DNA of 64,000 nt from Eledone cirrhosa (taxonomy: Eukaryota): contig OZ024741.1 in assembly GCA_964016885.1 (NCBI GenBank), positions 385,702,001 through 385,766,000 on the forward strand. The letters are read 5' to 3'. The position numbers and the translations under genes were made by a program. Below, piece after piece: positions 51,901 to 56,118 of the stretch. The number at the start of each line of letters is the position of its first letter. Position 1 is the first letter of the stretch. The notes under the pieces are model-generated. The model worked only from the letters and a program-made list of their open reading frames with translations, had not been told where the DNA came from and searched no databases.

Positions 51901-54900
51901 TATCACAAAGATTGGCTCTTTGTTTAGTTATTTTGTTACAAACGTTATTTCAAACTGATGTAACAATTTACAAGTTGCTTTCAAGAAAAAAAGTCACTTG
52001 TTAGTGATGTTTGTTTATTCACACACACACATATATATATATATATATATATATATATATACACACGAAGTTTCAGATTTATGATTATGCTTTTCGCAGA
52101 GATATGTCTATTATAACAAATAAATTTTGTCATATGTAAATATAAAGTCGATAACTGTAAGAGTGTGTATGTATATATATATATATATATATATATATAT
52201 ATATATATAATGAATATAAATAGAAGTTGTAGTCACAGTATAGCAGATACCAATCGAATTATATATATATATACAGTCACACACACAAAGTTGAATCTTA
52301 AAATCCTAGAGTTCTTTACTATATTTGTGTAACTAATTAGCACATACACACAAATATTTTATTTACATATTTCCACAGGTATATTTCAGTTCACTGGCTG
52401 CGAAAACACGAAAGACGACGAAATATCCACTTATCACAATATATTACATAATATAACCTAACATCAACCACTCACGAAAAAAAAAAAAAAAAACGCTGAA
52501 AATATTAAATACGTATATTTATATCAACGAACACACGCAAATGTCTTGTGTACAGATACAATGACAAGACACCGTAAACACATGTAAAAGCGTGTGCGCT
52601 GCCATCTTTAAAATACCCACAATGCATCAGTGACGGCCATCAATTGTGAACTACGAAATTATATAGTGTATCATATATAGATGGTGTGGTGAGGCGTTCA
52701 TGCACTTTCTGACATTATATTAATTAGCACAGAGAAATAAGAATGGGGTGTTGGCCACAATACAACTAGTGACCAACTGAACTACGAAATAAAACCGTTT
52801 TAGACATTAACAGTTGATTCTCTAGCCACAATCACAATAGAAAAAAAAAAATGTATTATATGACTGTGTTGTATGATTTATCTACTTCTTCCGTTTAATA
52901 TATATACAATCATTGCATTGTTTTCTTGCATTATTTTTCCTAGTTGACTTTTCTTTATTTCCTTTCCTTCTCTCTCTCTATATATATATAAATATACAGA
53001 GAGAGAAAGGAAATATATATATATATAAAAAAAAAAAAGCATGTTGTTCAGGCTACCCCGCCACCCAGGACCACCTATCCGGAACTCCATTAATCAATTG
53101 GTCATTTCCCGATAGGGTGTCAAATTTGATGGAGATTTCATTGCCACTCATTGTTTCGCCAAGAGATAGTCTAGATCAGTGGTTCGCAACCGTTTTTTTT
53201 TTACATATGGGAAAATAAACTGGAAACAATATTCTCGTGTGTGTGTGTTAATCTGTGCTATATATATATAAATGAAATATAGAAATTATTGAGAGCAAGA
53301 AGCCAACAGTATTTCATAATATATATAAATGTAAATAAATTTACACACACACATATATATATATATGTGTGTGCGTGTGTAAATTTATTTGCATTTATCA
53401 CCACTGATTCTAGTTGTTTTATTTTTCTGCAGTATCGTTTCTTTCGATTTCTATTAATATCCAAAGGAATTTTATTTACCAACTTCTTCGGTTAATTTGT
53501 TTTCTTTCTCTAAGGCATAAGATATTTTCTTTGAAAGCAACATTTTTTTTCATGGACTACTAAAGTACTACATTATTTTTTTGTGTGGACCCCCAGAGGC
53601 CATATGGACCAGAGTTGAAAACCAGTGGTCTAGGTGCATGTACACTTACACCCAATATATATATATACACATATTAGTCATGAGAAGAAAGTCATGTCAC
53701 GACTAACTGATTTCTACAGAACAGAGAAAACACACCTGCTGTGTGTACATATACTAACATATATAGCTGTATATGTATATGAAAGTGTTTTTGCTTTATA
53801 TTATAAATGTAGTTTCCTTCTCTCTCTTTCTCTCTAGTTATGTAAGTATCTATATATAACATGCAATAGACAATTCACGGCTATTACACACACATAATTA
53901 ATCATTATAAATCTCGGCGGAGAGATTTGACAACTTTGCTATCCGTTCTTCCATGATCGATAAAATATATCAGTCAAATACTGAGGTCTGTGTCAAATCG
54001 ATCCTGCTGACACACTTACCACCAAAACAATGTTTAAATATTCTTTTGTTGTTGTTTTTATTTCATAGAGGCAGAATCGGTAGCGCGTCGAATTAAAAAG
54101 ATTTAAGACTTCGCTGTATTTAGTTAGGTCCTTTATTATCTAAGTTCAAATCCCGCTGAGGTCAACATTACCTTACATCTTCCTGAGGAGGGGGGTCGAT
54201 AAACTAAAGTACCAGTCAAGTACTGGGGTCTATTTAATCGAATGCCTATCTATGATAAAATTATTTCCGTCCTTGTGCCTATGTTAAAATTTTTTTATTT
54301 CGTTTGTCTAATAAAAATACTCGCTTTTACTACTCTAGAAGATGGGGGGGGGGGTCTAACCACTCGTACCGCCCTCCCTACATCCACACATATACTAATA
54401 AGACAGTCAGTCACACAAACAGAAAGAGGCTAGCCTCACCTTTAAAATTTTTGATGACCAATTTTTTGGCGGCGGCGGGTCTGTTTGCAGCATTGAGGGG
54501 TGAAGCATGGTGTCTGCTGATACCATTGCTGGGGTTGGTCAGAGCTGAGAAGTTGGGTCTCCTCTCAGACTCGGTCATTGTTCTTACTCTTTCACCTTCT
54601 TTCTCTTTTTCGACTTCTTTATCTCCTCCTGCTGCCGCTGCTGATGATGATGATGCTGCTGCTGCTGCTGGTGCTGGTGCTGCGTCTACTCCTCCTCCTC
54701 CGCCCTTCTCTCTTTCTCCTTCTTTTTTCTCTCCTGTTACTATTTTTCTTTTACTCTCTTTTTCTTCTTCGTGGTTGTGGTCTTTTTTCTCTTCCTTGCG
54801 TTCGCCACCACCTCCTCCTCCTTCGCTGTTGCTGCTGCCAGCGCCGCCGCCACCACTAACTCCACTACCACTGCTATGTCCTTCTATATCTTGCCCACTT

Positions 54901-56114: not shown

Positions 56115-56118
56115 GCAT
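56095..56118 (-). promoter_or_regulatory. Overlapping uORF (MHASLKR*) starting 4 nt upstream of the first in-frame AUG
   Basis: Minus strand reads gga ATG CAT GCC TCT CTC AAG CGT TAA. Confidence 0.6.

Follow-up and report, generated by a model that had tools for sequence, protein, structure and literature searches.

Two Candidate Start Codons and an AUG-Free Coding Path in the CUL4 Gene of the Octopus Eledone cirrhosa

Introduction

C/EBPalpha and C/EBPbeta are each translated from one mRNA that carries a small upstream open reading frame (uORF) near a weak first start and gives a truncated product from a downstream AUG. Here, a comparable arrangement is described in the cullin gene CUL4 of the octopus Eledone cirrhosa, within a 64,000-nt stretch of contig OZ024741.1 (assembly GCA_964016885.1, forward-strand positions 385,702,001 to 385,766,000), hereafter the window, with positions counted from its first letter. 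The C/EBP proteins differ from CUL4 in that they are transcription factors with opposing isoforms, their uORF ends before the main start and the distance between the starts is far shorter. In CUL4, two proteins are probably made from one mRNA, starting at a weak first AUG (AUG1) and a strong in-frame second one (AUG2).

Related arrangements have been described in plants and humans. In Arabidopsis ATPS2, SCR and mTERF3, overlapping uORFs promote downstream in-frame starts in vitro, with altered localisation (PMC13405301). As in CUL4, an out-of-frame uORF lies over the first start and the next in-frame AUG drops an N-terminal targeting region. Unlike in CUL4, the truncation averages 88 residues, against 512 here, where every intervening AUG has been purged and the upstream AUG (uAUG) keeps a fixed -4 offset across animal groups; the plant case was established in vitro, and the present one is read from sequence. 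Human mRNAs with a weak AUG followed by a strong one (PMC7397870) resemble CUL4 in the selected context pair, in leaky scanning and in the differing localisation of the products.

Vertebrates have two genes, CUL4A and CUL4B, where the octopus has one. An N-terminal extension, called unique to CUL4B (PMC10476281, bioRxiv 2026.03.13.711546), carries a nuclear localisation signal (NLS; PMC11763709) and binds LIS1 and WDR1 (bioRxiv 2026.03.13.711546, PMC10476281) as well as specific DCAFs under phosphorylation control (bioRxiv 2026.03.13.711546). It measures about 80–120 residues, against 512 in the octopus, whose long form resembles CUL4B in its two basic patches and Ser-rich linker and whose short form begins like CUL4A. 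Mouse Cul4B-3, without the first 187 residues, was identified by band size and ascribed to alternative splicing from database entries (PMC3506489); it too is a short, N-terminally truncated CUL4B-type protein, differing in that splicing is the proposed route. In published supplementary tables, CUL4B appears only as the canonical entry (PMC13404309) or is absent from the files searched (PMC11933307). The open literature gave no report of dual initiation or of a uORF in CUL4; subscription papers lay mostly outside the search, and older reports of short CUL4 in Drosophila or mammals could be missed. Within that scope, the class of mechanism is already known and the novelty lies in its application to CUL4, the conserved placing of a uAUG four nucleotides before AUG1 (AUG-N-AUG) and the 1.5-kb AUG-free coding path.

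Results

An AUG-free coding path between a weak and a strong start

The CUL4 gene lies on the minus strand entirely inside the window, extending down to about 6893 (tblastn with Octopus sinensis CUL4), and the stretch that holds both starts is most of its exon 1. AUG1, at 56114, reads tgcATGc with a pyrimidine at -3, the weak context that a first-pass annotation of this DNA had assigned to it. That annotation had missed an out-of-frame ATG at 56118, 4 nt before AUG1 and in a better context (ggaATGc, -3 purine), whose uORF (56118–56095) spans AUG1 and ends 20 nt past it, as well as further ATGs at 56671, 56336 and 56258, all within the transcribed leader. AUG2, at 54578, reads acaATGa. The A at -3 and the CUL4A-like start claimed for it both stand, the latter on a weak alignment: the 46-residue peptide from AUG2 matches human CUL4A residues 4–49 with E 0.03, and in a PDB search the four best of 8 matches were CUL4A. 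This N-terminus begins a few residues before the FSAL motif, where CUL4A-type fragments found with the same profile also begin.

Between the starts, no ATG occurs in any frame over 1533 nt (56111–54579). ATG alone among the 64 trinucleotides has a zero count there (CAT on the same strand, n = 26), and no other of the 2844 ATG-free gaps on the two window strands is as long, the runner-up having 454 nt; the background for ATG gaps and for Met was drawn from the window, not from the whole genome. The first-pass expectation of about 20 ATGs was too high. Base composition does give 21.9 and a first-order Markov model 15.5, but fair controls give fewer: shuffling codon order, globally or in blocks of 10–100 (five block sizes), left 5.0–8.0 out-of-frame ATGs, with P(zero) of 1e-4 to 8e-4, and shuffles among synonymous codons, with protein and codon usage unchanged, left 2.8 (P 0.032). 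The depletion held in the codon-shuffled comparison that the annotation had proposed. The AUG loss exceeds what codon content explains, and composition-matched shuffles reject chance. All 512 codons are open, as had been claimed, with 0 stops in the CUL4 frame against 24 and 51 (75 in total) in the other two. Open frame and AUG loss are telling jointly, since a coding exon need not lose out-of-frame ATGs and an untranslated region (UTR) need not stay open. A weak first start, a strong in-frame second one and no AUG between them are found together in the window; the last of these features fails in 10 of 20 loci with short extensions.

It had also been proposed that Asn, Asp and His codons followed by G use NAC and so avoid AUG at the cost of CpG. 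All eight such junctions use NAC, against 22 NAT to 43 NAC at the other NAY codons of the region, a difference that is marginal by itself (Fisher P 0.047), and other NNY codons before G lean the opposite way (48 T to 18 C). The CpG cost is below that implied, the observed/expected ratio being 0.64 in the extension vs 0.40 in intron 1. There are 215 sites in the extension one substitution away from ATG; drift simulated at 0.1 substitutions/site gave a mean of 5.9 ATGs, and 0 of 600 runs ended with none. RNA structure along the extension was nothing unusual (19 windows, z -2.2 to +1.0). Directly after AUG2 the avoidance ends, as the annotation had it, with three out-of-frame ATGs in 85 nt (54526, 54508 and 54493).

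Both starts lie on one assembled RNA. In run X4, a single 4626-nt contig (record 25) is collinear with 56731–54440 apart from masked repeat letters, ends at 56731 and joins 54440 to 41861 across a GT-AG intron. Because it is spliced and collinear, one spliced transcript has a leader of at least 617 nt plus both starts, as seen in one sample and in a contig, not a single molecule. Inside the 54618–54711 repeat the contig is 6 nt shorter than the window, and the reading frame is preserved. X4 was treated as RNA solely from this GT-AG splicing; runs X1–X3 span introns and are DNA-like.

The short protein might instead come from a second promoter inside exon 1, as in human CFD, which would make scanning across the extension unneeded. 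Alternative promoters can serve conserved start pairs such as that of CFD, and a HeLa table from cap analysis of gene expression records, 437 nt downstream from the annotated start of CUL4B, a weak site (both PMC13219423). Exon 1 is, moreover, richer in CpG than intron 1, and the contigs are compatible with an internal transcription start; their depth is flat and would not reveal a step. A promoter would not explain why ATG is lost over the whole 1.5 kb, why AUG1 is weak or why the uAUG at -4 is conserved, and we consider it quite unlikely.

Cephalopod extensions

Six cephalopod proteins were counted: those of the window, O. bimaculoides, O. vulgaris and Argonauta, together with P0007 and the cuttlefish-type P0006. 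Each has a Met-free extension, of 224–635 residues, followed by the same second Met, and an additional decapodiform fragment, P0219, agrees. The window extension is 69% identical to that of O. bimaculoides and 42% to that of Argonauta; among the four least related extensions (24–50% pairwise identity), 1697 residues include 66 Ile and 0 Met. Across this range of lengths the frame is never lost. The MPLSS start is present in four of the six, with a close variant in P0007. The cross-mollusc comparison suggested with the first-pass annotation holds for the second start and for the absence of in-frame Met in all six; the O. vulgaris model deviates in its first residues. Across cephalopods, in-frame AUG absence was read from proteins; out-of-frame absence was read from the window DNA only.

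These data bear on the possibility that the extension is a long 5' UTR, with nearly all protein made from 54578, no working long protein and an open frame that is regulatory or a residue of read-through. Leaders are typically AUG-free, of low complexity and quick to change, some models are annotated at 760 aa, a stronger uAUG shadows the weak AUG1, and human CMPK1 shows frame conservation without amino-acid conservation (PMC7397870). In CUL4, however, amino-acid conservation of the MPLS start and of both basic patches extends from cephalopods to hemichordates and sea cucumber, and neither the contrast of 0 with 75 stops nor the change of length from 224 to 635 residues without frame loss is expected of a leader. 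We regard this explanation as quite improbable.

Several side observations concern the same proteins. A Ser/Thr-Pro shortly before the second basic patch (P0001 residues 157–166) recurs in molluscs, Owenia and fish, and may be a kinase target adjacent to the NLS-like motif. In P0014 and P0219 a further 'Met' lies 16–20 codons upstream of MPLSS, perhaps a start set by the gene caller. The database models P0005, P0003 and P0002 have obvious faults: the one for Sepia contains a lengthy insertion of low complexity, and those for O. vulgaris and, from UniProt, O. bimaculoides include anomalous internal stretches.

Start contexts and the overlapping uORF across animals

CUL4 5' ends were compared as DNA in the window and 24 loci from L001–L030 (25 in all); with 3 lacking the motif and 1 lacking an extension, 21 were left. 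The L loci are metagenome or transcript contigs, the metagenome scan having given 80 loci, none of them cephalopod, and their group names are rough, taken from a quick FastTree tree. An ATG at -4 was found in 7 of the 21 ends, six of them independent, with uORFs of 7–11 codons. Beyond the window, the carriers are L001, L003 and L005 (non-mollusc lophotrochozoan-like), L008 (deeper branching, possibly cnidarian) and L015/L016 (arthropod). In controls, an ATG 4 nt upstream was found at 0 of 319 internal Met codons and at 59 of 2846 window ATGs (about 2%). Six further ends have an out-of-frame uORF of some other kind across AUG1 (13/21 in total). The -3 base of AUG1 is a pyrimidine in 14/21, and an MPLS-type start is shared by cephalopods, gastropods, bivalves, Owenia, Holothuria and hemichordates.

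Protein fragments reading through the start were surveyed as well (150 fragments, 11 of them without the motif and 8 without a nearby Met). The residue before Met1 is Cys or Trp in 11 of 12, both decapodiforms included, against a 6% background; no other residues have TGN codons. P0215, outside that count, has Trp there too. In insect-type fragments, Cys stands at -3 in 8/8 (five distinct lineages), which would fit a same-frame uAUG at -10. P values for these Cys/Trp patterns are overstated, because the patterns were noticed before counting and the sequences are partly related.

The uORF could merely set CUL4 dosage, AUG2 being a safety net for diverted ribosomes and the two forms interchangeable. 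This accords with human data, where in-frame AUGs past weak starts partly reflect avoidance of wasteful out-of-frame products (PMC7397870). For such a purpose any near in-frame AUG would serve, yet none is found across 224–635 cephalopod codons, and AUG2 consistently follows both basic patches; we judge this explanation unlikely.

At AUG2, the -3 base is a purine in all 21 DNA 5' ends. Deduced from the residue before Met2 in 89 fragments, it is a purine in 81, a pyrimidine in 1 and ambiguous in 7, with a purine background of 75% at positions -2 to -15 near Met2. As the residue preceding Met2 varies freely, over 13 amino acids, the constraint is on the -3 nucleotide, as for a start codon. This speaks against the idea that only the long protein matters, Met2 being a functional residue or a relic and the lack of ATG a result of low-complexity composition. 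In favour of that idea, Elk1 has a conserved internal Met kept for function and not for initiation (PMC4103894), the synonymous shuffle gave only P 0.032, and a HeLa start-site table has no AUG-initiated truncated CUL4B in the part searched (PMC13219423), where the CUL4B rows are two 'annotated' AUGs and one CUG truncation, with coordinates absent. Apart from selection acting on the base and not on the residue, the authentic N-terminal residue of CUL4A-type proteins lines up with Met2, composition-matched shuffles reject chance, and the avoidance ends just past AUG2; we judge the idea as a whole very unlikely.

Other observations were made on the leaders and start regions. A GGYC...GGCC motif about 20–35 nt before AUG1 is present in the L003, L005, L006 and L008 leaders as well as in the window. 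L003, L005 and L008 fold it into a hairpin of 6–7 bp, both partners of one pair being different in L008; this is the minimum-energy structure in these 3 of the 6 leaders aligned, whereas other folds are preferred in the window, L001 and L006. Eight annelid-like and insect-like fragments (P0229, P0234, P0248, P0206, P0037, P0231, P0285 and P0336) have a Met-Ala or Met-Arg start 7–11 codons before Met1, either a habit of the gene caller or perhaps an additional start, AUG or non-AUG, that is conserved. The first nine residues of P0318 equal the L008 uORF before the protein enters the CUL4 frame; it is probably a frameshifted assembly, yet it displays the uAUG called as a start.

Two-methionine layout and vertebrate paralogs

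Met1, two basic patches and Met2 follow one another within about 30–55 residues in gastropods, bivalves, Owenia, Priapulus, insects, sea cucumber and hemichordates, and the layout spans molluscs, annelids, arthropods, hemichordates and fish CUL4B. The first homolog survey was queried from Met2 and so biased towards it; a second, with a whole-protein query, gave the same picture. A profile of the short extensions scored 23–38 bits against cephalopod extensions, with 0 of 200 shuffles as high, so by this measure the cephalopod extension is homologous to the short extension, roughly 40–55 residues long, of other invertebrates, and only its extreme length is cephalopod-specific. Against vertebrate CUL4B extensions, the same profile scored a weak 7–14 bits, with 0–7 of 200 shuffles as high. 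The window extension has two basic patches in the CUL4B order, NLS-like by motif and weak in homology score. In all 106 parsed CUL4B proteins, mostly from ray-finned fish and not independent, a Met is retained past the second patch and the codon preceding it begins with a purine, and in 104 of them no Met other than Met1 lies upstream of the matching Met. In the full-length protein parse, P0042 was wrongly entered as a Met2 start.

The cullin core and Nedd8 domain place the gene in CUL4, trees group it with mollusc CUL4, and its closest database proteins are Octopus and Argonauta CUL4, which marks the animal as an octopodid. In a quick tree, CUL4B and two CUL4A-type fragments clustered apart from molluscs with support 1.0, a bat CUL4B row being misplaced by internal duplication or model error. 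This grouping rejects one-to-one orthology with vertebrate CUL4A, and equally with CUL4B; on tree position, the window gene is a co-ortholog of both paralogs and a member of neither. P0333, in which a CUL4A-like N-terminus comes after a two-patch extension, may represent an intermediate state near the vertebrate duplication.

In short invertebrate extensions, the absence of Met is not significant (3 in 1237 residues vs 4 in 1044 downstream). Strict AUG purging was seen for this octopus alone, perhaps because a path of 1.5 kb would contain many traps if AUGs were allowed. One arthropod clade (L013, L014, L019, L020, L021 and L026) has a strong AUG1 and a conserved internal out-of-frame ATG at +46 to +55; in the three members checked, the internal ORF has 3 codons and ends 32–41 nt before AUG2.

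Features of the gene and its surroundings

The features are collected in Table 1. Against O. sinensis CUL4, tblastn gave 20 pieces with 76–100% identity, two short parts of the protein not being listed at the >70% identity cut-off. Homologs of the protein bear PF00888, PF10557 and PF26557, and, as regards binding of DDB1 and RBX1, the protein shows the conserved N-terminal motif ahead of the first cullin repeat.

Table 1. Positions of CUL4 features in the window.
Feature	Position	Strand	Basis
5' leader, at least 617 nt, unspliced, 4 upstream ATGs	56115..56731	-	X4 record 25 (collinear 56078-56731), ATG list
uORF, 2 codons	56663..56671	-	ORF/ATG list
uORF, 15 codons, CUL4 frame but stopped	56289..56336	-	ORF/ATG list
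uORF, 13 codons, CUL4 frame but stopped	56217..56258	-	ORF/ATG list
GGYC...GGCC leader motif (weak lead), common to other invertebrate CUL4 leaders	56131..56144	-	leader alignment, folding
Overlapping uORF, 7 codons, AUG-N-AUG, out of frame with AUG1	56095..56118	-	sequence; same arrangement in L001, L003, L005, L008, L015, L016
AUG1, weak context, putative long-form start, MPLS motif	56112..56114	-	sequence and homologs
N-terminal extension, 512 codons, Ser/Thr/Gly/Asn-rich, about 51 kDa, ATG-free in every frame	54579..56114	-	spliced contig covers it except masked repeats
First basic patch, residues 50-54, NLS-like by motif only	55953..55967	-	aligned across invertebrates
Second basic patch, residues 162-166, Ser-Pro ahead of it	55617..55631	-	motif
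AUG2, A at -3, proposed short-form start	54576..54578	-	sequence; -3 purine conservation
CUL4A-like N-terminal peptide up to exon 1 end; GT donor 54439-54438	54440..54578	-	X4 junction 54440 to 41861
Exon 2	41641..41861	-	X4 contig, tblastn
Rest of the CUL4 exons (18 tblastn pieces, >70% identical to O. sinensis CUL4)	6893..33514	-	tblastn

At the 5' end of the RNA contig (56728–56750, minus strand) there are two motifs resembling the YY1 and BANP housekeeping-promoter consensus, and just upstream of that end the CpG observed/expected ratio is 0.95. High-copy repeats lie in intron 1 (41900–54400) and at about 60100–63600, with a summed depth of 1e5–1e6 in the DNA-like runs; by eye, both regions contain ORF fragments like the reverse transcriptase of long interspersed nuclear elements.

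Discussion

The arrangement suggests that scanning complexes at the AUG-N-AUG site would face three options. Those starting at AUG1 would make a long form of about 1272 aa (about 140 kDa) with two NLS-like basic patches. Those starting 4 nt earlier would translate the 7-codon uORF; since its stop lies 20 nt beyond AUG1 they cannot use AUG1, and on resuming scanning they would meet no AUG before 54578. Some complexes would leak past both the uAUG and AUG1. Reinitiating and leaking ribosomes together would give a short form of about 760 aa (about 88 kDa) with a CUL4A-like start, and, as this form depends on a clear path, the extension must stay in frame and AUG-free. Reinitiation and leaky scanning are not separable by sequence, and each needs that path. 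The three other leader uORFs would lower total output. By analogy with the vertebrate paralogs, the long form may be located in the nucleus and have receptors of its own, the short form resembling CUL4A. We consider it likely that one CUL4 mRNA yields both proteins through uORF diversion plus leaky scanning. That both are made, the share of reinitiation and leaky scanning, the nuclear versus cytosolic location and the regulation of the ratio by initiation-factor status are what we infer from the arrangement.

The first-pass annotation had proposed two forms by leaky scanning, as a translational analogue of the vertebrate split. The two forms are supported by both starts on one contig, Met-free cephalopod extensions and conserved contexts; simple leaky scanning is incomplete as an account, because ribosomes would also be drawn away from AUG1 by the overlapping uORF, which is conserved at -4. 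The arrangement is probably ancestral and not a cephalopod analogue, since the two-Met layout is present in most invertebrate CUL4 and in fish CUL4B.

Besides the possible internal transcription start, Elk1 and the HeLa table mentioned above, several observations weigh against this reading. The synonymous-only shuffle is modest, as is the simulated absence of in-frame Met per lineage (P 0.03 at 0.3 substitutions/site), and the absence of out-of-frame AUGs was seen in this one species. In the 20 loci with short extensions, the two starts enclose 10 out-of-frame ATGs in total vs about 15 expected (summed per-locus shuffles), which amounts to no depletion, and in L001, L006 and L018 an internal out-of-frame ORF overruns AUG2. 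In human CUL4B, the first AUG past the start is out of frame (+73, 16 codons), so that its path is not AUG-free (PMC7397870). The overlapping uORF is absent in 8/21 5' ends (three nearest upstream ATGs checked), and in 7/21 AUG1 has a purine at -3. Pro, meaning a -3 pyrimidine, precedes Met2 in several bivalves and two hemichordates (19 of 72 non-vertebrate full-length proteins, many of them near-duplicates). For the Cys/Trp and leader patterns, counting came after they had been noticed, and the sequences are related. As for gene models, that of O. vulgaris lacks the first ~40 residues and begins at a Met replacing a Gln, which could reflect a faulty gene model or a genuine break, and those of O. 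sinensis and, in an older version, O. bimaculoides are annotated as 760 aa.

We also put forward, tentatively and as a possibility somewhat short of probable, that an early-animal CUL4 switch (AUG-N-AUG uORF, weak AUG1, strong AUG2) made NLS-bearing and NLS-less scaffolds which the vertebrate duplication then split, CUL4A losing the extension and CUL4B keeping it, still with the second Met. If so, the division of labour between CUL4A and CUL4B would predate the duplication, and the invertebrate long:short ratio would respond to initiation-factor status, as in stress or mitosis. A 2025 review holds that a cytosolic role of CUL4 was gained only with vertebrate CUL4A (PMC11763709).

The cephalopod extension, reaching 635 residues with all AUGs purged, would be a natural test of the distance over which ribosomes scan and reinitiate, and the 1533 nt of coding sequence lacking AUG lend themselves directly to use as a reporter of scanning over long distances. 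If two forms are indeed made, both are old, invertebrate CUL4 genetics has addressed two proteins, and many database CUL4 models display one form only. CUL4 would then be a clean case of paralogs fixing former alternative start products. A short CUL4B would be predicted from the conserved internal Met, and it may be relevant to 5' truncating alleles in CUL4B-linked intellectual disability.

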